From: a phage
Direction: 5' to 3' (one strand)
NCBI GenBank assembly: GCA_019338205.1
Contig: GCA_019338205.1_4761.1
Length of the DNA stretch: 64,000 nucleotides
The notes beneath the pieces are model-generated. The model was not told the DNA's origin and did no database searches. It was given only the letters and a program-made list of their open reading frames with translations. Made by a program: the position numbers and the translations under genes. This document shows, in pieces, positions 5,802 to 32,328 of the stretch (the stretch's first letter is position 1; each line of letters starts with the position of its first letter).

Positions 5802-6074
5802 ATGCGTAAGATGTTTAAATCCGGTGTGGCCTATGTTTTTAAATCTGAGCAAGCACGTAAAGACTTCCTAGAGGATGACTACGAAGGATTGAAAGATACC
5901 TACGAAGTCATCAAGAATGGGTTTACTGTTCTTAAAGTGTCACCTATTGGTTATGTAAGTGAAATCTCGGTTGATGGGAAAACATATACCGCTAAAGACT
6001 TTGATCCGCGTTGGGAATTTATGCTTCTTCCGTGTGACCGCATTCTGTTTCGTGCTGTTCAATTAGTGAAATGA
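5802..6074 (+). CDS. hypothetical protein, GF(K/T)VL-module family
   Basis: 91 aa; module GFTVLKVSPIGYVSEISVDGKTYTAKDF. Confidence 0.55.
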   Translation: MRKMFKSGVAYVFKSEQARKDFLEDDYEGLKDTYEVIKNGFTVLKVSPIGYVSEISVDGKTYTAKDFDPRWEFMLLPCDRILFRAVQLVK

Positions 6075-6088
6075 TAGAGGATTATATT

Positions 6089-6649
6089 ATGGTACAGAAA
6101 ACATACAAAGTATATTCGGTTAAGTCACCCAATGACGCTGTTTTTGAACGAGGTCGTTACTATACTTTCCGTAGTGCAGAAACAGTCGCAGAATTTATCA
6201 AACGATGTCCGCAACATAATAAGTTCTTGTATGACGTGCTTTGTAACGGCTTTAAAGTTCTCACTGTTGATGCGATGGGGCGTGTGTATCTGGTAGAAAC
6301 TCATGAGTATGAAGGTGCATCTGTTCTGATTGCTGCAAACGAGCGAAAATACTTTAAACGCATCACTAAAAAGCAGTTTGAAGAAATGAAACCAATTAAG
6401 AAAGAAGAATCTCTGGAAGATCTGATTAACTTGTTTGCGAAGTCTTCTTTGGTATCATTGACGCTGGAAGATTTTAGCTTTGATAATCAGCTATACTTTA
6501 AAAATGCCGATGACTTGAAAGATTTTCTGATTGAGAATAAACCTAAGCTAGAAACCTATATCAAAGGTGAGATTAAGCGCATGGAACATCAAGCAAAATA
6601 TAGCGCAGATAAAGTAGCTGAACTGAAAGAGATCCAAAGGTCACTTTAA
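6089..6649 (+). CDS. hypothetical protein, GF(K/T)VL-module family
   Basis: GAGGATTATATTATG; GFKVLTVDAMGRV and ERKYFKRITKK shared with next gene. Confidence 0.6.
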   Translation: MVQKTYKVYSVKSPNDAVFERGRYYTFRSAETVAEFIKRCPQHNKFLYDVLCNGFKVLTVDAMGRVYLVETHEYEGASVLIAANERKYFKRITKKQFEEMKPIKKEESLEDLINLFAKSSLVSLTLEDFSFDNQLYFKNADDLKDFLIENKPKLETYIKGEIKRMEHQAKYSADKVAELKEIQRSL

Positions 6650-6652
6650 CGC

Positions 6653-6681
6653 TTGACATGATGAAACGGGAGTAGTAAGAT
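6653..6681 (+). promoter_or_regulatory. sigma70-like early promoter with GGGAGTA/TACTCCC inverted repeat
   Basis: TTGACA 6653-6658, 17 bp spacer, TAAGAT 6676-6681. Confidence 0.6.
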
Positions 6682-6712
6682 ACTCCCATCTAAACAACGA
6701 GAGGATTATATT

Positions 6713-7891
6713 ATGGCTAAATTCTTTGAAGGGCATTACTACGCATTCCGTGAAGGCGGTAAAGATGAGTTTCTAGACTTTTCTCGCTATTCAATTACTC
6801 TGACCGATACTTCGCGCCGTGGTCATATTCGGGTTGCTGAAATTGTAGAAAAGGGCTTTAAAGTATTAGAAAAAGATGACCACGGTCATGTTGTTACTAT
6901 TGAAGCTGGAGATGTAGTTTATTCCGCTGAGGATATCGTTTATTATTGGGCTACTATGATTATGCACAATGAGCGCAAATACTTTAAACGCATCTCAAAA
7001 GAGGCATACGAAGCGATGAACAAGAAAGAGGATGCAATGCCGACTTACTTTGAAAAAGGTAAATGTTATTCGTTTACCCCGGAAGGTTTGCAAGAATTTA
7101 AGCGATTCTGGGGAGAGCATGATCCAGAGCACAAAGAAGCCATGAAACTTGTTGATTTTGTCGAATATGGCTTTTTAGTTGAAGAAGAATTGCACGGATC
7201 GGCTACCATGATCACCGCGAAAGGTGAAACTGTTAAGGCGGATCGTTTTTGTGACCAATGGAATTGCTTGTTTGACGGTAGCGAATTTGAATACTTCGCG
7301 GAAATCACGCGAGTTGAATATGTCCGTATGCAAGAGCGTGGTCAGAGATTTAAAGTAGGCGAACGATACAAGCCAAATCCACATAATTTGCCTCATTGGT
7401 TTAATACTGAAACCGTATCCAGTCATGTTATTGAAATTATTAAAACGCTGGAACATGGATTTAAGGTAACTAAAGTAGATTCTTTCGGAAGTGTTGACGC
7501 TGTTGAAGTTGATGGTGTAGAATATACTCCTAAATCTTTCGGGCTTTGCTGGTATCACCTGATCAGCAATGATGAACGTTATTACTTTGTTGAACTGCCA
7601 TCTGAACCGGAAGAAGCACTAGAAGATCATGATCATCTGTCTGAACTGGTTAAGCTGTTTGGTGATCTGCCGGATGGTGTAGGGGTGGCGGTAATGGGTG
7701 AAGGTGCTGTTATCCGAAACCTGAAAGACTTTAAAAAGTTCTTGATTGACATGCTGCCTAAACTTGATGATAATCTCGATAAAGATATTCAGAATCGCAA
7801 AGAAATTGTTAAAGATACTGAAAAAGAGATCGAAGAGATTCGAGCAATTCGCCAGAAGGTGAAAGCAGTAAAGAAAAAAGTTAGTTCTTGA
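6713..7891 (+). CDS. hypothetical protein with repeated GF(K/T)V modules
   Basis: 392 aa; internal repeats GFKVLEKDDHGHV, GFKVTKVDSFGSV; ERKYFKRISK motif. Confidence 0.6.
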   Translation: MAKFFEGHYYAFREGGKDEFLDFSRYSITLTDTSRRGHIRVAEIVEKGFKVLEKDDHGHVVTIEAGDVVYSAEDIVYYWATMIMHNERKYFKRISKEAYEAMNKKEDAMPTYFEKGKCYSFTPEGLQEFKRFWGEHDPEHKEAMKLVDFVEYGFLVEEELHGSATMITAKGETVKADRFCDQWNCLFDGSEFEYFAEITRVEYVRMQERGQRFKVGERYKPNPHNLPHWFNTETVSSHVIEIIKTLEHGFKVTKVDSFGSVDAVEVDGVEYTPKSFGLCWYHLISNDERYYFVELPSEPEEALEDHDHLSELVKLFGDLPDGVGVAVMGEGAVIRNLKDFKKFLIDMLPKLDDNLDKDIQNRKEIVKDTEKEIEEIRAIRQKVKAVKKKVSS

Positions 7892-7915
7892 CATGCGAAG
7901 GGAGTATGCTATAAT
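7888..7915 (+). promoter_or_regulatory. sigma70-like early promoter with GGGAGTA/TACTCCC inverted repeat
   Basis: TTGACA 7888-7893, TATAAT 7910-7915. Confidence 0.6.
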
Positions 7916-7945
7916 ACTCCCACTTAACAACGAGAGGATTATATT

Positions 7946-8440
7946 ATGTGGGTACAAGATGTTTGGTATACTGTAACTAAAGAAAACCTTGACGCATTCA
8001 GCGACCAATCTTGCGCTAATAGCTCAATTGCTGATATTCTTGAAGATGTGTTTGGTGGTGTAGATAAAATTCGTTTTAAAGTTGTTGTTAATTCTATGGG
8101 GTGTGTAAAAGACCTATATACCGATGATAAAGACCTTGATCTTAAACTTCATCTTCGTATTGATAATGCAAGTCTAGGTTATTGGTTTGAAGATAACGAG
8201 TATGAATACTTCACACCAGCAATTAAAGTTTTTGCAACTAAACTGGAAGCTGTACTAAATCTCCGACCAATTAATGTTGACGGTTACATTATCAAAAATA
8301 TTCAGGAGTGGGATTCATATCTAGATCAGATTATCCGAAATAGTAAGCAGGAAGCCGCTAATAAGAAGCGACAAGAGATCAAACAACTGAAAGCTGAACT
8401 GGAAGCGGCGGAAAAAGAATTAGCAGAACTGGTAAAATAA
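7946..8440 (+). CDS. hypothetical protein with C-terminal coiled coil
   Basis: GAGGATTATATTATG; 164 aa. Confidence 0.55.
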   Translation: MWVQDVWYTVTKENLDAFSDQSCANSSIADILEDVFGGVDKIRFKVVVNSMGCVKDLYTDDKDLDLKLHLRIDNASLGYWFEDNEYEYFTPAIKVFATKLEAVLNLRPINVDGYIIKNIQEWDSYLDQIIRNSKQEAANKKRQEIKQLKAELEAAEKELAELVK

Positions 8441-10352: not shown

Positions 10353-10384
10353 AGCCGATCCGAAAGGGTCGGCTTTTTCGTTTT
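10353..10384 (+). terminator. intrinsic terminator
   Basis: AGCCGATCCGAAAGGGTCGGCT hairpin + TTTTTCGTTTT. Confidence 0.7.
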
Positions 10385-10390
10385 GGGGTG

Positions 10391-10418
10391 TTGACAACCT
10401 GATTAGCTAATGTATAAT
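10391..10418 (+). promoter_or_regulatory. sigma70-like early promoter
   Basis: TTGACA 10391-10396, TATAAT 10413-10418. Confidence 0.55.
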
Positions 10419-10447: not shown

Positions 10448-10990
10448 ATGATGATGATGTTTTGTGTACTGAGCAAAGAAGTTAAACTTCGTAAACTGGA
10501 AATTGGCGATGGTGTTGTTGTTAAAATGCACGCTAGCACATTGGCTAGTTTTAATTTAAAGGAAAGTTTTTTTATTAGAGGAACGGTGGTTAATATCTGC
10601 TGGAGTCAATGCGAAGGAATCCGTAGCTTTTGCGTAATTGACGATGATAATAACCTGTATGTGATTCGCTATCATAATAATTCTGTATTGGTCTATACCG
10701 ACAATTCACGAGAATTATATACTCTTGAATTTGTTAAGCGTACTGATTGCGACCTATTTGTTCGTGCTTATGAAGAAGATGGCTGTTTTGCGACTGAAAC
10801 AGAAACAAATGAATATGTTCCTATGGAAGTAGGGGCAGAAATTAAACACAAGATCACGGATCGTATTTTTAAGGTTGTGGCGGTTGCTCATACTCAATTT
10901 GTAGCGCAAGCGCCGGATGAAGAATTTATTATCTACAATATTGGTAATGCAAGTTCTCATTTTCATAATGTACTATATCGCGACCTTTGA
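10448..10990 (+). CDS. hypothetical protein
   Basis: 180 aa ORF with GAGAGGA RBS. Confidence 0.55.
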   Translation: MMMMFCVLSKEVKLRKLEIGDGVVVKMHASTLASFNLKESFFIRGTVVNICWSQCEGIRSFCVIDDDNNLYVIRYHNNSVLVYTDNSRELYTLEFVKRTDCDLFVRAYEEDGCFATETETNEYVPMEVGAEIKHKITDRIFKVVAVAHTQFVAQAPDEEFIIYNIGNASSHFHNVLYRDL

Positions 10991-11007
10991 TAATGTGTGA
11001 GGTGAAT

Positions 11008-11529
11008 ATGAAATCATTAAACCGTAAGCGTAAAGCACAACGACACAAAGAACGAGCTAAAAAGATTGCTATTGAACTCTGTGAGCGTGAGGATAGCTAT
11101 TTGTCTACTGGTCGTTTGTATACATTCCATGCATTGATTGATGGTAAGCCAGTGTTGCATAATCATGATTGCTTGGCACTGTTTCACGAGATCGAACCAA
11201 TCCATCGTGAATGTGATGACAACAAAGCAAAAGGTCAATATTTCCTTACGTGTTCGTGTGGTCATGCTGGTTGTGCTGGATATTGGGAACCTGTTACTAT
11301 CCGTGAGAAAAATGATACCATTCAATGGGTCGCCCGTACCCGCGATGGTTATGATAAAGGTGCTGATGGTACTGGCGATAACGTAGTTTACTTTAATCGT
11401 GATTGGTATTATATGGCGCGATGTATGATCCTGTTTTATCTTGACTCGATGCCGTATGAATATTTCAGTTTCCAGAATGGGACCGAACTGACAGGGAAGG
11501 AATGGTCTGAATACATTCGAAAAATTTAA
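11008..11529 (+). CDS. hypothetical Cys/His-rich protein
   Basis: GAGGTGA RBS; basic N-terminus; CSCGHAGCAGYW motif. Confidence 0.55.
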   Translation: MKSLNRKRKAQRHKERAKKIAIELCEREDSYLSTGRLYTFHALIDGKPVLHNHDCLALFHEIEPIHRECDDNKAKGQYFLTCSCGHAGCAGYWEPVTIREKNDTIQWVARTRDGYDKGADGTGDNVVYFNRDWYYMARCMILFYLDSMPYEYFSFQNGTELTGKEWSEYIRKI

Positions 11530-11609: not shown

Positions 11610-11762
11610 ATGTGGACTTTACTGATTTGGGAAACTGAAAACGCACAAGTAGAAATCCGTGAATACGAATACCTAAGCCCAGCTTATCTATTAGCATCTC
11701 GCGGTGGTTACTATAAAGCGCAGATTGTAAACGAGTTCGGGGTGATTGAATATGAGTTCTGA
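11610..11762 (+). CDS. hypothetical small protein
   Basis: 50 aa ORF with GGAGAATCAAATATG RBS, downstream of promoter. Confidence 0.4.
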   Translation: MWTLLIWETENAQVEIREYEYLSPAYLLASRGGYYKAQIVNEFGVIEYEF

Positions 11763-12255
11763 TACATACGGCAAACTACGCTATGCCGATATTAAAGATT
11801 GTGATATGGTTAACGGTGAGGGAGTGAGAGTCTCCCTTTACGTTACCGGATGTTCACACGCATGTGATGGTTGCTTTAATGCTAGCCTACTCAATCCTAA
11901 GAACGGGGAACCATTCACCGATGATACAATGGGATTGATTCTGGATCTGCTTAGACCTGATTTTATTCAGGGGCTAACATTCTTAGGTGGCGATCCACTG
12001 TATAAACGCAATTTAAAGGGTGTACAGCGGATCATCGATGAAGTAAAATCATGGATGCCAAATAAAGATATTTGGCTATGGTCTGGTTATACCCTTGACC
12101 AATTGAATGATGAGCAAAGAAAAATTGTAGAATCAGTTGACATGTTCATTGATGGGCGTTATATTAAAGATATGCCAACGAAGAAGCCGTGGCGGGGGTC
12201 TGACAATCAAGTACAATACAAGATTGTTAATAGTATTCCAGTGAAAATTATTTGA
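11746..12255 (+). CDS. nrdG: anaerobic RNR activating enzyme (NrdG, radical SAM)
   Basis: CxxxCxxC cluster GCSHACDGC; adjacent to nrdD. Confidence 0.8.
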   Translation: MNMSSDTYGKLRYADIKDCDMVNGEGVRVSLYVTGCSHACDGCFNASLLNPKNGEPFTDDTMGLILDLLRPDFIQGLTFLGGDPLYKRNLKGVQRIIDEVKSWMPNKDIWLWSGYTLDQLNDEQRKIVESVDMFIDGRYIKDMPTKKPWRGSDNQVQYKIVNSIPVKII

Positions 12256-12265
12256 GGTGATTATT

Positions 12266-12793
12266 ATGAAATGGGAAGTTGGTAAAACTTACAAGATTGA
12301 ATGCGAAGCGTCGAAAGCCGAACTAACTAAATTTTCGTCGTCTATTAACAGATGTATTGTTGACTTGTTGGCTGGTCGCCCGTTTAGGGTAGAAGACCTT
12401 GACGATGATGGTGATGTTAGAGAAATTACTGTTATTGGTAGTAATTTCGACTCTATGACGTTAAAAGAATCCCCTATTGGCTGTTCCGGCGTGTGGTTTT
12501 GGTCGGGTGAGCGTCGTTTCTTTACCGAAGTTACTATTGAACCTAAGATTCCAGATTCGGAAGAAAAAGAAGAAGACCTAACTTTAGAACGCCTGGGTCT
12601 GCTTATGGAAGCCTACGACATTCAGTTGATCGATAAGATGGGGTTACATAATAGCATTGCCAAAATTACTACCCTAGAAGGTATTAAGAGCGTACTGGAT
12701 GGTATGCCTAGCCGGATCGGTGCTATCCGAGAATACAAACAAACGCGCGACCGTATGATCCAATTAGAATCACGTATCAAAAATGAGAGATGA
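12266..12793 (+). CDS. hypothetical protein, MKWEVGKTY family paralog 1
   Basis: N-terminal MKWEVGKTYKIE; C-terminal helical tail. Confidence 0.55.
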   Translation: MKWEVGKTYKIECEASKAELTKFSSSINRCIVDLLAGRPFRVEDLDDDGDVREITVIGSNFDSMTLKESPIGCSGVWFWSGERRFFTEVTIEPKIPDSEEKEEDLTLERLGLLMEAYDIQLIDKMGLHNSIAKITTLEGIKSVLDGMPSRIGAIREYKQTRDRMIQLESRIKNER

Positions 12794-12797
12794 TATT

Positions 12798-13262
12798 ATG
12801 AAATGGGAAGTTGGTAAAACCTATGCGTGGAAAGATGTAAAAGATGCAAACCAATTTTTTAAATGGTATGATGTTGATTATTTGAAATATCTGAGATTAC
12901 CGTTTAAAGTTGCGTCGGTTGATGCGAAAAAAGGATACGTGCGGTCTGTATATCTTCATGATGGAACTTATATGAGTTCAACCGATGTAGGTCTATCTTG
13001 TTGGTTTCTGGATCATGACCGTAGCAGATTTGAAGAAATTATTATTCCAGAAGAATCTAAATTAATTGATCTTCTCAAGTTGGCGATGGATAATTATAAA
13101 ATCCGCTTTGAATGCAAATCACATGCGGCTATCGGTGCTAACGCATTGCGTCATATCTCCAGTTTTGAAGAGTTGAAAGATTTTCTTGACAAAATGCCGG
13201 AAAGAGTGCAAGCTATACAGGAAGCAGAGAAAGCATTAAACGAACTTGATAAAATCGGTTAA
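12798..13262 (+). CDS. hypothetical protein, MKWEVGKTY family paralog 2
   Basis: N-terminal MKWEVGKTYAWKD. Confidence 0.55.
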   Translation: MKWEVGKTYAWKDVKDANQFFKWYDVDYLKYLRLPFKVASVDAKKGYVRSVYLHDGTYMSSTDVGLSCWFLDHDRSRFEEIIIPEESKLIDLLKLAMDNYKIRFECKSHAAIGANALRHISSFEELKDFLDKMPERVQAIQEAEKALNELDKIG

Positions 13263-13274
13263 GGGGAATATATT

Positions 13275-14099
13275 ATGAAATGGGAAATTGGTAAAACTTA
13301 CACCTGGAAAGACGAAAACGCTAAAACTGAGTTTATTACTAACGGAGAAGGTGTTCTTTCTCCACTTAACAGCGATATTAGTGCAGCTATTGGTGACAAG
13401 CCATTTACCATCATCGAGATCGAGGGTAACGGTTGGATTGATGCAATAGAGCTAGACGGTGTTTATCATACGGCGAAAACTGCTACAGGAAAAGACATTT
13501 GGACTGCAACATATTTCTTTAGTCCATTCGATAGAAAATTCTTTCGTGAAGTTGAAGAAGTTCCCCAGAAATGGGAAGTTGGTAAAACTTATACTTGGAA
13601 AGATGTGAATGCTATGACAGACTTCTGCCATTATGCTGAAAACGCATCTAACCTTAATTATGTTATTGCACGAGCAATAAATTATAGACCTTTTACTGTT
13701 AAAAATGTTCGTCCATGTGGGCAAATTGATGTAATTGAAATTGATGGTAAAGACCATACTCTAATGAGCGCAACCGAAGATAGAGACCATAAAGGAACTA
13801 GCTGGTTTATTGATTCTGATAGAAAATTCTTTCGTGAAGTAGAAGAATTGGAAGTTATAACCACTGATTCTAAGATCGTTGGACAGTTGAAACGTCTGTT
13901 TAGTAGTCGTTACGGCCTGACAATGGTTAAATTTGGCGAAGCAAATGAAGGTAAAACCTTTGAACGTTTCGATGATTTCATTGCGGCACTTGACAAGATG
14001 GATGAAATCATGCAAGATCGCCAGAAGATTAAAGACCTTCAAGAAGACATTAAACGTCGTGAAGTTGAATTTTTGATTGGTAAAGAGCGAGGTTGGTAA
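13275..14099 (+). CDS. hypothetical protein, tandem double MKWE(I/V)GKTY domain
   Basis: MKWEIGKTYTWKD at N-terminus and QKWEVGKTYTWKD internally; repeated DRKFFREVEE. Confidence 0.55.
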   Translation: MKWEIGKTYTWKDENAKTEFITNGEGVLSPLNSDISAAIGDKPFTIIEIEGNGWIDAIELDGVYHTAKTATGKDIWTATYFFSPFDRKFFREVEEVPQKWEVGKTYTWKDVNAMTDFCHYAENASNLNYVIARAINYRPFTVKNVRPCGQIDVIEIDGKDHTLMSATEDRDHKGTSWFIDSDRKFFREVEELEVITTDSKIVGQLKRLFSSRYGLTMVKFGEANEGKTFERFDDFIAALDKMDEIMQDRQKIKDLQEDIKRREVEFLIGKERGW

Positions 14100-14100
14100 T

Positions 14101-14583
14101 ATGTTTGTTGCTGGCGTGACCTATCAGTGGAAAGATAAGAAAACGAGAGAAGATTTTGCAAACTTTAGCGTTGCAAATGATGCAATAGCAGAGTTTATAG
14201 GCGACCGTCCATTTAAAGTTATCGCATTTGATCACCATGCATCGGATGTTGATTATGTTTCTGCGATTGAAATTGATGGCACGGTATACACCTGCTGCAA
14301 TGTTGATGATGTACGGGAATACGCGCACAACTGGTTTTTGCAATCAGAAGAACGTCATTTTAAAGTGGTATCGGCAGAACTGACCACTGATGCAATGTTG
14401 GAACAATTTTTCAACAACTACGAAGTTTCTGTACGTCGATACGGTGAAGAGGAAGTATTTAAAATTGATGACTATAATCAGTTTAAACGAGTATTCGCCA
14501 CTAAGATCCAACGTGATATTGAACGCGAGAAGCGCATTAAGGAACTGGAAGAAGAACTAGAAAGATTAAAGGCTGAGAAATGA
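14101..14583 (+). CDS. hypothetical protein, diverged member of same family
   Basis: VTYQWKDKKTREDF..GDRPFKV..AIEIDGTVYT; coiled-coil C-terminus. Confidence 0.5.
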   Translation: MFVAGVTYQWKDKKTREDFANFSVANDAIAEFIGDRPFKVIAFDHHASDVDYVSAIEIDGTVYTCCNVDDVREYAHNWFLQSEERHFKVVSAELTTDAMLEQFFNNYEVSVRRYGEEEVFKIDDYNQFKRVFATKIQRDIEREKRIKELEEELERLKAEK

Positions 14584-14849
14584 TCGAGATATACGGTATA
14601 CCGAAAGAGGCTTATCATTGTTATGGTTGTATTAGTGCAATGAAGCTACTGGATGATCTGGGTATTCCGTATACACTTAAACCAGTATTCAAGCCGGTCG
14701 GGGTTGACATTATTCCCGACCGTGATATGATTGAAGAACTGGCGGGGAGGCTAAACTCAAAGAGCCTCCGGTTTGTATACCCCCAGATATTCATTGACAA
14801 CGAGCACATTGGAGGCTATAAAGAACTGAGGGCGATTTATGATTATTGA
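14580..14849 (+). CDS. glutaredoxin-like protein (NrdH-like)
   Basis: CYGC active-site motif near N-terminus; ~89 aa. Confidence 0.6.
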   Translation: MIEIYGIPKEAYHCYGCISAMKLLDDLGIPYTLKPVFKPVGVDIIPDRDMIEELAGRLNSKSLRFVYPQIFIDNEHIGGYKELRAIYDY

Positions 14850-14997
14850 GAATTTAGTTTCGGTGTTCATTATTGCTTTATTTGCTATAATGACTTTACC
14901 GTTGAAGAAGTGTAAGCACTGTAACGGAACAGGATTGCGTGGTGATGGGTGTTGCGCTCATTGTCATGGATCTGGTAAAGTAAGTATCATTAAGTAA
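14839..14997 (+). CDS. small membrane-anchored protein with two CxxCxGxG zinc-finger motifs
   Basis: 52 aa; hydrophobic N-terminus then CKHCNGTG and CAHCHGSG. Confidence 0.4.
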   Translation: MIIENLVSVFIIALFAIMTLPLKKCKHCNGTGLRGDGCCAHCHGSGKVSIIK

Positions 14998-15018: not shown

Positions 15019-15306
15019 ATGTTAGTACACAATGCAATCGCACACATGGTTTATTCTCGATTTGGGCGCATGGAAGAAATCAATATTACCGACGCAGATT
15101 TAGATCTGATGCAAGTCGAAGGCCAGACATATCTGAAAAATAACGGCGTGAATATCGGTAAAGCGCGTGTGCGTGAATTGTTAGTTGAATATATTCTCTC
15201 TGAATTTGGCATTAGTGCTTTCGGTGTGAAAGAGATTGCACCTAAGCGCGAAATTTCTGATAAAATGATCAAGAAATGCCAGAAAGCACGACGTAAGGGT
15301 TTCTAA
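15019..15306 (+). CDS. hypothetical protein, translationally coupled to downstream NTPase
   Basis: GAGGAATATATTATG; stop/start TAATG overlap with next gene. Confidence 0.5.
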   Translation: MLVHNAIAHMVYSRFGRMEEINITDADLDLMQVEGQTYLKNNGVNIGKARVRELLVEYILSEFGISAFGVKEIAPKREISDKMIKKCQKARRKGF

Positions 15307-16775
15307 TGAAGATTGAAACATTAATTGCATTGCCAGCGGCGGGGAAAACTGATGCTATACTTTCCCACGTCCTAGAGACAAAAGAAAAAGCGGTTATTGC
15401 TTCGCCATCTCGTGTTTTAAGTGAACAATCTTACAATAAGTTTAAAAGAATGGGCGGTCGTGCTGTCTTGATTGATAGCACAAGACTAAGAAGCCTTAAG
15501 ACAGTGCAAGCGTCGATAATGCAATCAGTTAAAGACGGTGCTGATGTGATATTCATTACACATACAGCGTTATCTAATATGGAACGTTCAAAAATGTTTG
15601 GTGAATATGCTCTTTACATTGATGAAGTTCCTCAACTGGTTGAATTTAATGAGTATCCGTTTAAGTCTAATCTTGAACTTATCACGAAGCATTGCGAACC
15701 AATCGCCGACGAATCGGAATGCCTACAGAACTTAGTTCTAAAAGACTCTGAGAAGGCCGTTATCAAAGAAAAGATAGAAAGTGCAAAGGATGGTACTGAT
15801 ATGATCGATTCTTCTCTTAGAGGGCTTTATGAGGCGTTATTAGAGAAGAAAATCAACGTTATGGTAAAACATAACGAAGGACACCGGAAGAATGGGTCGA
15901 AAATTGTTTTCTTGAACGATAACAAACACGGTACGTGGGGAGACTTTAAAAAGGTTACGATAGCATGTGCAAATCTCTTTGATACATATAGCGGGAAGTA
16001 TCTACGATACTATGCAAATTGCGATTTTGTTCCGAGTGCGCTAGAATCCAGACTATATTTCAAAGAGTATAAAAATACAGATAGAGTTAATATCATCCTT
16101 ATGACGGACTCTGAACGATGGTCGCGTCACCAGTCAGAAACAAACAATACCTTTGAACGTCTTGTTGATATGGTTAAAAATGAATGTGGCGATGACTTCA
16201 TTTATACCGTGAATCGGGACCGAGAAGCGTGTACAAATGGTATTGGTGAGCGGATACCTTACGGATCTTATGGTCTTAACTCTTACATTCATCATAAAAA
16301 TGTTGCTGTGATGTTCAGCTTTAACCCGCAACGATGGGAGATTGATATTTTAAAAGGTCTTGCTAATAGTTGTGATCTCCCGACAAACGAGTTTTTGAAA
16401 GCGCGTCATGTGTCTGATTATCTGGAACCAGCATTTCAATTATGTTTGCGTTGTAACCTGAGAGACAACGAGAGCAAGGAGAATGTTAATCTATATGTTC
16501 CTGATTTGGCGTTGGTAGATTATCTAAAAACGTTTCTACCTGATGCCAATGTAATAACAGACCGAATGATTCCGCTAGAATGTGGTGAGCGTAAAGGGCG
16601 AAAATCATTTAAAAAGATGTTCGATTTTAACGAGCAAGAGAATGCAAGATTTAACGGATTTAAGTACCGCATGAAGAAAAAGGGAAAAACTCTTGATCCG
16701 TCTGACGGTGAATCTGTAGAGATGGTTAGAGTGTGGATAACTAAGCAAAGAAAGTATAATGGTAATGGGGAATAG
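15306..16775 (+). CDS. P-loop NTPase of unknown function (Walker A/B, helicase-like N-terminal domain)
   Basis: LPAAGKT Walker A, YIDEVPQ Walker B-like; 489 aa, no match to a T4 core gene that I recognise. Confidence 0.55.
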   Translation: MKIETLIALPAAGKTDAILSHVLETKEKAVIASPSRVLSEQSYNKFKRMGGRAVLIDSTRLRSLKTVQASIMQSVKDGADVIFITHTALSNMERSKMFGEYALYIDEVPQLVEFNEYPFKSNLELITKHCEPIADESECLQNLVLKDSEKAVIKEKIESAKDGTDMIDSSLRGLYEALLEKKINVMVKHNEGHRKNGSKIVFLNDNKHGTWGDFKKVTIACANLFDTYSGKYLRYYANCDFVPSALESRLYFKEYKNTDRVNIILMTDSERWSRHQSETNNTFERLVDMVKNECGDDFIYTVNRDREACTNGIGERIPYGSYGLNSYIHHKNVAVMFSFNPQRWEIDILKGLANSCDLPTNEFLKARHVSDYLEPAFQLCLRCNLRDNESKENVNLYVPDLALVDYLKTFLPDANVITDRMIPLECGERKGRKSFKKMFDFNEQENARFNGFKYRMKKKGKTLDPSDGESVEMVRVWITKQRKYNGNGE

Positions 16776-29915: not shown

Positions 29916-30233
29916 ATGGATAAGAAACCAACAAGTTTAGAAGAAGCACACAGCTTGATTCAAGAAGCAATGAAGACAGTTATTCAGGAATTGATAATTG
30001 TTGATGAAGAGGGAGAACATCATATTGTCTATATTCATAATGTTGAATACGATCCAGACACTAAAGGTATTATGGTCGACTACTCCACGCCGTCAGATCG
30101 TGATGTGGTATATCCACACGTCATTAAGGCGTTAACCGCGCAGATCAAAGAAGCAGAAGAAAAGTTGAAAAAAGAAACTTTCTGGTATAAACTCAAGACC
30201 TTTGTTATGCGTGTAGTTGGGGGCTATGTATGA
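29916..30233 (+). CDS. hypothetical protein (gene 40 position)
   Basis: GAGAGGATTATATTATG; 105 aa between uvsX and 41. Confidence 0.5.
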   Translation: MDKKPTSLEEAHSLIQEAMKTVIQELIIVDEEGEHHIVYIHNVEYDPDTKGIMVDYSTPSDRDVVYPHVIKALTAQIKEAEEKLKKETFWYKLKTFVMRVVGGYV

Positions 30234-31642
30234 TTAAAACTATCTTTTCACAGTTGATTTACAATGGCGCATTCTTTACGAATGTATGGCCTCACCTTAA
30301 AGCGGACTACTTCACCGAAGACGAAGAAAAACTGATTTATAAGCTGATTAAAAAGCACGTAGACGAATATTCCAATATTCCTACGCCAACTGCATTACAG
30401 ATTGCTTTAGACAAGGAGAGAGGCAATCAGACAACATATGAAGGGGCTAAAACTCTTCTTGATTCGCTTGAGAATACACCGGAAGACCTTGATTGGTTAA
30501 TGAAGGAAACCGAAAAATTTATTCGTGACCGCGCTATGTATAATGCAATGTCACGGGCGCTAGAGATTCAGGCGAACGCACAACTACCAAAAGAGAAACA
30601 GAATAAGAAATTGCCGAGTGAGGGTGCTATCCCTGAGATCATGCAGGAAGCACTATCCATTACGTTTGATTCTGATGTAGGTCATGACTGGTTTAATGAC
30701 TTTGAAAAACGATTCTTGCTATATCAGACTAAGGCGAATAAGATCCCGTTTAAGCTGCCGATGTTGAATAAAATCACGAAAGGAGGGGCGGAAAGAAAAA
30801 CGCTAAATGTGTTGCTTGCTGGTGTAAACGTTGGTAAATCGCTTGGCTTGTGTTCTCTTGCTGCGGATTATATGGAATGTGGTTATGATGTATTGTATAT
30901 CTCAATGGAGATGGCAGAGCATGTCGTAGCCAAACGTATCGACGCAAACTTGCTTGACATTACATTAGATGAATTGGATAATGGTAATGTTTCTTTTGCG
31001 GAATATTCCGCACGTATGAAGCGTGTTAAGAATAAGAAGATCGGGGATCGTCCGGTTGGAAAATTGATGATCAAGCAGTATCCGACTGGTGGCGCAAACT
31101 CCAATCACTTTGAGGCGTTAATGAATGAATTGCGACTCAAGAAACAGTTTAAACCTGATGTTGTGATTGTTGACTATCTGGGGATTTGCGCATCGTCTCG
31201 CTTGCGTGTATACTCTGAAAATAGTTACACACTAGTTAAGGCGATTGCGGAAGAACTGCGAGGATTTTTTGTTAAGTGGGATGTTGTTGGTTGGACTGCG
31301 GCACAGACTACCCGCGAGGGTTGGGATGCTTCCGACCTTAACATGAGTGATACCGCTGAATCAGCAGGTCTTCCGGCTACTGCCGACTTTATGTTGGGTG
31401 TTATCGAAACCGAAGACCTGGCTAAAATGGGCGTCCAACTCATGAAGCAGATCAAGTCTCGTTACGGTGATAAGAACTATTATTCACGGTTTAACGTTGG
31501 TGTGAAGAAAGGCAATCAGCGTTGGTATGAAGTACCAAACCAGATCGCAGATCAGGAGAATGCACAAGTTAAACCACAAAGCGCACAGCAAGCCGAGAAA
31601 CGAGAAAAACTCGACGAGCTAGCAAATAACATGACTTTCTAA
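30230..31642 (+). CDS. 41: replicative helicase gp41 (DnaB-like)
   Basis: Walker A GVNVGKSLG, Walker B VVIVDYLG; 470 aa. Confidence 0.85.
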   Translation: MIKTIFSQLIYNGAFFTNVWPHLKADYFTEDEEKLIYKLIKKHVDEYSNIPTPTALQIALDKERGNQTTYEGAKTLLDSLENTPEDLDWLMKETEKFIRDRAMYNAMSRALEIQANAQLPKEKQNKKLPSEGAIPEIMQEALSITFDSDVGHDWFNDFEKRFLLYQTKANKIPFKLPMLNKITKGGAERKTLNVLLAGVNVGKSLGLCSLAADYMECGYDVLYISMEMAEHVVAKRIDANLLDITLDELDNGNVSFAEYSARMKRVKNKKIGDRPVGKLMIKQYPTGGANSNHFEALMNELRLKKQFKPDVVIVDYLGICASSRLRVYSENSYTLVKAIAEELRGFFVKWDVVGWTAAQTTREGWDASDLNMSDTAESAGLPATADFMLGVIETEDLAKMGVQLMKQIKSRYGDKNYYSRFNVGVKKGNQRWYEVPNQIADQENAQVKPQSAQQAEKREKLDELANNMTF

Positions 31643-31692: not shown

Positions 31693-32328
31693 ATGATCGC
31701 TAATGCTTTACCGCCAAAATGGATCGTAAGTCGCTTTTATACTCTCAAGGAAGGTAACGCACCTGATGGTCGTCCGATCCGAGATCTGTTTCTGGAGATG
31801 ACTACAGCCGAAGCACAGTTTTATAATGATCTGACAGACGATAAGCCATTTCTCGTAAATTCGGTGGACCTTGATGGCAATGTCACATCAATCATCACAC
31901 ATGGTGGGGGAGTGAAAAATATTACTTCTCTGCGTGATCACGGTTGGGAAATTGCTTGTGTATTTCCTGCGGATGTACGCGGATTCTTTGATGAGGTATC
32001 TGATATTAAAGTAAATGCACTGGAACCATATGACGAGATCCCACCACTGAAAGAAGAAAAAGAGTTGACACCGGAAGATGTAGATAGTACACTACACCCC
32101 GACCTATTTAAGAAGATTAGCGGTTTATGGACTGTTACCCTGTATCCAACCGCATTAGGTCTAGAATTGGGTATGCCAACTTATTCTGATATTGATAACT
32201 GGAATAAGAGCATTGATAAAGATGTTGAAAAACAGCGAAATAATGCTAAAATGCAACTTAAAGAGAAACGCAAAGATCTTGAACGACAACTGAAAGAAAC
32301 AAAACATTTGCTTTCTACATTCGCTTGA
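31693..32328 (+). CDS. hypothetical protein
   Basis: 211 aa ORF. Confidence 0.5.
   Translation: MIANALPPKWIVSRFYTLKEGNAPDGRPIRDLFLEMTTAEAQFYNDLTDDKPFLVNSVDLDGNVTSIITHGGGVKNITSLRDHGWEIACVFPADVRGFFDEVSDIKVNALEPYDEIPPLKEEKELTPEDVDSTLHPDLFKKISGLWTVTLYPTALGLELGMPTYSDIDNWNKSIDKDVEKQRNNAKMQLKEKRKDLERQLKETKHLLSTFA

Follow-up and report, generated by a model that had tools for sequence, protein, structure and literature searches.

The window analysed here is a stretch of 64,000 nucleotides of phage DNA (GenBank assembly GCA_019338205.1, contig GCA_019338205.1_4761.1). At positions 12266-14583, between nrdG and nrdH, it carries four intact and tightly packed open reading frames (ORFs), designated genes A to D. 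With moderate confidence, we read these genes as a tandem array of four members of the phage T4 GoF/Frd.2/MotB.1 family, produced by old duplications, in which a constant C-terminal module is joined to an N-terminal barrel that is exchanged between phages, and which probably has a partner-binding function. Five copies of an N-terminal module of about 90 residues, starting with MKWE(V/I)GKTY, are present in the array, alongside a helical C-terminal module (CTD) that occurs four times, as follows:

12266..12793, + strand: gene A, 175 aa, orthologue of RB49p051; barrel about 12266-12550, CTD 12551-12793 (from the ORF and the RB49 annotation)
12798..13262, + strand: gene B, 154 aa, orthologue of RB49p050; barrel about 12798-13052, CTD 13053-13262
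13275..14099, + strand: gene C, 274 aa, orthologue of RB49p049; barrels C1 13275-13565 and C2 13566-13853, CTD 13854-14099
14101..14583, + strand: gene D, 160 aa, orthologue of RB49p048; barrel 14101-14370, CTD 14371-14583

Anatomy and age of the array

The region 11700-14900 was matched by 59 phage records, all of them Krischvirus (RB49-like Straboviridae, placed outside Tevenvirinae by the taxonomy line of the records), the best match being phage FL15 with 98.9% identity. The array region was present in all 59, 54 of which matched at least 80% of it in one piece, and few vary. In RB49 the four orthologues (p051, p050, p049 and p048) are all annotated 'hypothetical protein'. A Shine-Dalgarno-like sequence precedes the start of each gene. 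The near-identical start motif, ascribed to all four genes in a preliminary description of the sequence, is present in genes A, B and C, but is degenerate in gene D (MFVAGVTYQWKD), whose start is most likely the ATG at 14101, matching the RB49 annotation. The gene D stop codon overlaps the nrdH start.

The same description had proposed a true paralog family of four genes and five domains, one gene having two domains, and the five N-terminal modules were indeed found by alignment. It had also described the genes as flanking nrdG, whereas all four lie on one side of it. The two N-terminal modules of gene C (boundary at residue 97) are 50% identical, and all other pairs in the alignment of five N-terminal and four C-terminal modules share 21-32% identity. 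The expansion is therefore old; recent duplication was ruled out at this level of divergence. The idea of a rapid gene-family expansion does not hold for paralogs so distant, in a region found in every matching Krischvirus record. Nor are the members fragments of one ancestral gene.

Homology to T4 GoF

T4 GoF has puzzled researchers since the 1970s, and only in 2025 was its family defined. By profile comparison, genes A to D are homologous to it. A hidden Markov model (HMM) built from the five barrels of the array picked up five more distant members in the window, which brings the total to nine genes and 12 barrels. A profile search of the shared module, one of the checks proposed beforehand, brought out T4 GoF at 31-45 bits (31.3 bits against the HMM of five barrels, 45.3 bits against that of 12), and T4 MotB.1 gave a weak score of 8-12 bits against the window barrel HMMs. 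In the PHROGs database, all four genes fall into phrog_5347, with weaker matches to 'goF mRNA metabolism modulator' families and to phrog_622, the family of T4 GoF (E=8e-19 to 5e-4 for phrog_622). For gene A the values were E=3e-66 with phrog_5347 and E=5e-11 with phrog_622. Reciprocally, T4 GoF matched phrog_5347 (E=6.5e-7) along almost all of its sequence. For genes A to D there was no match in Pfam at E≤1 and none in NCBIfam, and a profile search of the PDB returned nothing relevant.

The superfamily is small, as an exhaustive HMMER search with the 12-barrel profile among 1.84 billion representatives yielded only 66 matches at E≤0.001, mostly of 90-270 residues; a few long repeat proteins among them, matched over about 30 residues only, were taken as spurious. 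A word-indexed protein search found Krischvirus-like relatives only, with no gene B orthologue among the matches listed (best 120 of 128), and a scan of IMG/VR found two loci only.

The preliminary description had overlooked an existing account of the family, part of which carries the names goF or frd.2 in RefSeq and PHROGs: RefSeq labels RB49p058 and p059, which are sibling paralogs, goF or frd.2, 'goF mRNA metabolism modulator'. GoF, together with Frd.2 and MotB.1, was defined as an 'LSm-like fold' family by Kim et al. 2025 (PMC12152347), who make no mention of RB49, Krischvirus, paralog arrays or allelic barrel exchange.

Predicted structure

Structure prediction of the shared module had also been proposed. 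AlphaFold2 was run on a construct made of C2 and the CTD, with an alignment of 57 sequences. The N-terminal module came out as an SH3-like (FeoA-like) beta-barrel in this model (residues 1-93, with a predicted local distance difference test score, pLDDT, of about 90; strands 8-11, 43-48, 54-59, 62-64 and 89-91). It is followed by a linker (residues 95-105) with pLDDT below 50 and, at lower confidence, by helices 100-116 and 135-174, the latter long and charged. The order of barrel, flexible linker and C-terminal module is that of the T4 GoF family. For full-length gene C, two barrels were modelled at pLDDT 80-88 with a predicted template modelling score of 0.39, which indicates no fixed arrangement between them.

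A Foldseek search of BFVD gave 64 matches at E≤0.001. The named ones were almost all from T4-like phages of many hosts, and included a protein annotated GoF and the 'Dc2' protein of ECD7; one exception is phAPEC8, which is not known to be T4-like. The best resemblances to solved structures were the SH3-like domains of FeoA and of DtxR/IdeR, which are also the nearest solved folds for the T4 GoF family. This likeness to FeoA and DtxR/IdeR/SloR is at the level of the fold only: sequence identity is 7-18%, there is no Pfam or PDB sequence-search match, and no metal ligands are conserved in the window barrels. The barrel alignment contains no conserved His or Cys; its invariant residues (G6, Y9, F43, F81, F89) form the hydrophobic core, which is conserved across the 12 barrels.

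The barrel resembles Hfq/LSm in being a small barrel made of a bent antiparallel beta-sheet, a likeness on which the published name of the T4 family is based. The Sm/LSm/Hfq fold proper, defined by an N-terminal helix and five bent strands, is not what the model shows, however: in place of the Sm N-terminal helix, its first element is a strand, and two helices separate beta1 from beta2. Also unlike Hfq/LSm, the window barrels are acidic.

Exchange of barrel alleles between phages

The array was compared module by module in 17 related loci (those designated by L are given here under that label). CTDs, nrdG and nrdH were 87-100% identical between phages where the barrels were 43-76% identical. 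The conserved flanks are:

11752..12255, + strand: nrdG, anaerobic ribonucleotide reductase activase, upstream flank (Pfam Fer4_12, E=2e-43); 99-100% identical across loci
14580..14849, + strand: nrdH-like glutaredoxin, downstream flank (Pfam Glutaredoxin and RB49 annotation); 92-99% identical across loci

By position, barrel identity was 47-75% for A, 43-52% for B, 69-78% for C1 and 54-76% for D, C2 being replaced or absent. The gene B alleles of ECD7, SSG23, L006, L009 and L010 illustrate this, with barrels 43-52% identical and CTDs 95-100% identical; in gene D, the RB49 allele has a barrel 54% and a CTD 87% identical to those of the window.

In genes A and B, synonymous divergence (dS) was saturated in the barrel (1.3-2.55) and low in the CTD of the same gene (0.14-0.38), for instance 2.55 and 0.14 for gene B compared to ECD7, or 1.59 and 0.18 for gene A compared to L006. 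Such a difference within one gene implies that the barrels were exchanged by recombination. In gene D both halves are old, with dS of about 0.8-1.4 (about 0.9-1.3 compared to RB49), and nonsynonymous divergence (dN) from RB49 was 0.34 in the barrel against 0.06 in the CTD. The dN/dS ratio was about 0.07 for the CTD and averaged 0.25-0.6 for the barrels. We concluded that the CTD is the constant part of these proteins, under strong purifying selection, and the barrel the variable part, with two to four deeply diverged alleles per position. Gene conversion between paralogs was ruled out as the origin of this diversity, because the alleles cluster by position.

Within the barrel, most of the variation is found in two surface helices, alpha1 and alpha2, and in the loop linking beta4 to beta5, and the conserved parts are strand 1, the PF motif, the G.V..I strand and the WF...DR.FF.EV segment. 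Barrel alleles are exchanged by homologous recombination, with two conserved sites, the gene start and the barrel/CTD junction, as arms. Of the 14 full-length loci compared, 13 had intact reading frames. The exception is FL15 (L002, 2084-2564), in which gene B is frameshifted and split into two ORFs. Gene D is likewise split in the metagenomic contig L023 (4467-4938). These split genes may be pseudogenes or sequencing errors.

A comparable process is the modular shuffling reported between phi1 and RB49 (Arbiol et al. 2010, PMC2839356), where segments are also replaced among close phages, at short conserved sequences and in variable regions. The unit exchanged here, in contrast, is a protein domain within a gene, and the arms are coding motifs (gene start and barrel/CTD junction) instead of the regulatory cassettes of that paper's title. 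Arbiol et al. (PMC2839356) do not mention nrdG, nrdH or these ORFs. What is new here is the swapping of front halves among related phages, together with short DNA repeats that delete whole units.

Repeated DNA motifs and loss of units

The 23-nt sequence ATGAAATGGGAAGTTGGTAAAAC occurs at 12266 and 12798 without mismatch, at 13275 with one mismatch and at 13566 with two; these 4 matches compare with 0 in 100 dinucleotide-preserving shuffles. The preliminary description had given the first three positions correctly and the fourth as 13567, one nucleotide off. Repeat finding extended this motif and detected a second one:

12262-12293, 12794-12825, 13271-13302 and 13562-13593, + strand: 5' motif direct repeat (TATTATGAAATGGGAAGTTGGTAAAACTTACA), a 32-nt family of four copies
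13530-13559 and 13818-13847, + strand: DRKFFREVEE repeat (GATAGAAAATTCTTTCGTGAAGTTGAAGAA), 30 nt, 97% identical

The start motifs of A and B (12266-12288 and 12798-12820) are identical over 23 of 23 nucleotides in this phage only. Most relatives have ATGGAATGG... (ATGGAA...) at the start of gene A and ...GAAGCTGGTAAGAC or ...GCTGGTAAG... in gene B. A and B differ there at three positions, and the perfect identity is therefore peculiar to the present phage; it may reflect gene conversion over a short patch. Selection on the 5' motif at the RNA or DNA level was ruled out, as synonymous sites vary across 15 loci (GGTAAA/GGTAAG, GTT/GTA/GCT, ATGAAA/ATGGAA); conservation at the protein level together with codon bias explains the motif. 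At the 5' end of gene D, an 18-nt tandem duplication (MFVDGN-MFVVG...) was seen in L012, L013 and L006, at the equivalent of window position 14101, and looks like slippage at the gene start.

It had been suggested that these repeats are long enough to promote recombination, and natural variants with junctions inside them bear this out. KFS-EC, a cultured species exemplar, has no gene A: the region upstream of A and the residues 'MEW' are joined to the body of gene B, which places the junction inside the ATG(G/A)AATGGGAAG 5' motif. In contig L010, 291 nt (barrel C1) are missing, and the junction falls within the family of 5' motif repeats. From L007 and L009, 288 nt (barrel C2) are missing, the junction there being in the DRKFFREVEE repeat, and phage E26 has the same single-barrel gene C, of 178 aa. 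In contig L023 two genes remain, and an A::C2 chimera is present. Short repeats thus cause unit deletions and chimeras, so that gene and barrel number differ among isolates; the copy-number comparison in related phages, another of the proposed checks, accordingly found gene A, C1 or C2 lost in some. As KFS-EC is viable without gene A, and E26 without barrel C2, single units are dispensable. What turns over fast, nevertheless, is the allele of each N-terminal barrel and not the number of genes.

Other family members and neighbouring genes

The more distant members recognised by the HMM are distributed as follows:

5802..8440, + strand: second cluster, upstream of nrdD, of more distant members of the superfamily (local HMM searches, RefSeq names of RB49p058 and p059, PHROG scan)
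5802-6074, + strand: barrel-only protein, 90 aa, second cluster
6071-6649, + strand: second-cluster member (local HMM searches)
6713-7891, + strand: protein with three barrels and a CTD, 392 aa, second cluster
7946-8440, + strand: GoF-like gene, 164 aa, second cluster
31693..32328, + strand: dc2-like gene, 211 aa, ninth family member (HMM E=6e-6 before iteration; BFVD fold match 'Dc2 [ECD7]'; RB49 annotation)

With the second cluster upstream of nrdD, it is the nrdD-nrdG block that is flanked, by two GoF-like clusters. The third site, that of the dc2-like gene, is directly downstream of the gene 41 helicase (30230-31642). Gene 41 mRNA, whose gene adjoins this member, is also the transcript stabilised by T4 GoF(D25Y). 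No further family member was found in the portion of RB49 beyond the window (positions 45-145 kb). The position of T4 goF, between 39.2 and dexA, is empty in RB49. In the second cluster, barrel variation among phages is milder (52-99%).

As in T4, where members are encoded in early or dispensable regions, the genes belong to a T4-like phage, and their N-terminal barrels are homologous to those of GoF/Frd.2/MotB.1 by profile, with reciprocal PHROG matches. The arrangement is different. T4 has three members, scattered and each with a single barrel, whereas here nine genes with 12 barrels form two tandem clusters and one isolated gene, some proteins having two or three barrels; Krischvirus thus holds three times the member count of T4. 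Genes A to D moreover have in common a conserved helical C-terminal module, unlike the T4 family, and T4 goF and motB.1 are located between gene 39 and dexA, away from the nrd genes.

Several neighbouring elements are outside the family. Two ORFs of 180 aa (phrog_14838 and phrog_8242) are found between nrdD and nrdG, at 10448-11529, the second of which has a Cys-rich stretch, CSCGHAGCAGYW. Downstream of nrdH, a 489-aa ORF (15306-16775) corresponds to RB49 p044, annotated hypothetical, and carries a weak DEAD-helicase Pfam mark in related contigs. In the whole window (1-64000), no tRNA gene was detected and no Rfam family reached the gathering threshold.

Possible function

Genes A to D are probably expressed early, to judge from near-consensus sigma-70 sites that a consensus scan placed on the coding strand. 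One site upstream of the array is:

12137..12165, + strand: sigma-70-like match (11/12) to a promoter, TTGACA-17-TATATT, within the end of nrdG and some 100 nt before gene A (consensus scan only)

This site is a possible early promoter of the array. Perfect (12/12) sigma-70 sites were observed elsewhere on the + strand, at 7888-7915, just before the 164-aa GoF-like gene, and at 10391-10418, after a strong terminator-like hairpin (10353-10374) that ends nrdD.

Homology gives one functional lead only, T4 GoF, through its link to mRNA stability (PMC12152347). It is GoF(D25Y), and not wild-type GoF, that stabilises a gene 41 leader-reporter RNA (PMC12152347). D25Y and G84R mark the two rho-suppressing gain-of-function substitution sites of the protein, rho being the host gene with mutant alleles that restrict T4. 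At the D25Y position, the window barrels have Y, F, W, N and F (aromatic in 4 of 5), and at the G84R position K, R, S, K and R (basic in 4 of 5), four alignment methods being in agreement. Barrel C2 combines Y and K at the two positions. Almost every allele of A, C1, C2 and D retains the basic residue at the G84 position. This gives a hint, at the level of aligned residues, that the sites of GoF gain of function are often already mutant-like in these proteins, so that an activity may be easier to detect with them than with T4 GoF. All barrels but that of B, which is neutral, are acidic, with a net charge of -4 to -7 (pI 4.6-5.3), and the ligand is therefore more likely protein than RNA.

We infer that the products of genes A to D may act as partner-binding adaptors. 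The constant CTD would probably self-associate or dock onto a conserved partner, and the variable barrel would probably recognise a variable ligand. By analogy with the action of GoF(D25Y) on gene 41 mRNA, this recognition might tune RNA metabolism or host takeover.

Several observations weigh against a GoF-like adaptor array. The CTD (about 70-80 residues) was modelled with low confidence, and Foldseek found nothing significant in the PDB (best E=0.27). RNA stabilisation has been seen in the family only with the D25Y mutant of GoF, and T4 can do without goF and motB.1 in the laboratory (PMC12152347), as KFS-EC and E26 can without single units of the array. With mostly acidic barrels, general RNA binding is less likely, and across alleles the residue at the D25 position is not consistently aromatic. 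Finally, the sigma-70 consensus scan shows no overall enrichment (38 sites against 31 expected).

Alternatively, the genes could form an array of anti-defence or host-range effectors, the barrels neutralising or evading variable host immunity or restriction factors and the allele diversity being the trace of an arms race with strains of E. coli. Such a role overlaps with the adaptor reading, and we regard it as possible, though rather doubtful. The preliminary description had considered the region typical of host-interaction or anti-defence functions, an idea compatible with barrels that are hypervariable and with A and C2 being dispensable. Barrels that have diverged deeply are swapped among phages with near-identical flanks, the cultured phages KFS-EC, E26 and FL15 (whose gene B is frameshifted) do without single units, and the array is part of a variable region of probably early genes. 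The acidity of the barrels would also fit, many protein-binding inhibitors being acidic. On the other hand, average dN/dS of the barrels stays below 1, and no library searched yielded a significant match to a defence-related protein, the PADLOC matches being noise (best E=0.0016, 15.7 bits), PADLOC covering defence and not anti-defence proteins, and no dedicated anti-defence library having been searched. The only experimental lead for the family, besides, is mRNA stability (PMC12152347).

A more elaborate proposal, which we hold to be improbable, is that of a recombination-driven diversity locus. The CTD helices would assemble the paralogs, perhaps into mixed oligomers, so as to display different barrels on one scaffold, and the alleles would be shuffled to keep pace with a polymorphic host target, for example a sensor of host defence or an RNA-processing factor that varies.

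That the proteins are iron or metal accessory factors of anaerobic ribonucleotide reductase, their FeoA/DtxR-like SH3 barrels serving the radical-SAM, Fe-S system NrdD/NrdG, is very unlikely. The best solved-structure matches and the two clusters on either side of nrdD-nrdG would agree with such a role, but there is no Pfam FeoA match, no His or Cys is conserved and the invariant residues belong to the hydrophobic core, T4 goF and motB.1 are not beside nrd genes, and one window member comes after gene 41. Equally hard to sustain is the view of decaying duplicates kept as functionless filler between essential genes, varying under relaxed constraint: units are lost or frameshifted in viable phages, and T4 goF and motB.1 knock-outs have no laboratory phenotype (PMC12152347), yet frames are intact in 13 of 14 full-length loci, the region is in 59 of 59 matching records, CTD dN/dS is about 0.07 and that of the barrels below 1 even at saturated dS, the hydrophobic core is maintained across 12 barrels, and T4 frd.2, alone among the genes of unknown function, came out as a fitness gene when T4 was screened by CRISPRi-ART (PMC11879866).

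The finding is therefore not a new kind of system, but an expanded branch of an already described family, with informative natural variation. If the diversity-locus proposal were true, the array would be an intracellular counterpart of the adhesin mosaicism of tail fibres. For the GoF family as a whole, the barrel swaps, unit deletions and changes in barrel number of the relatives constitute a natural experiment that separates the constant half from the half that probably confers specificity, and the allele sets, with the viable deletion mutants KFS-EC and E26, are ready-made material for finding the ligand.

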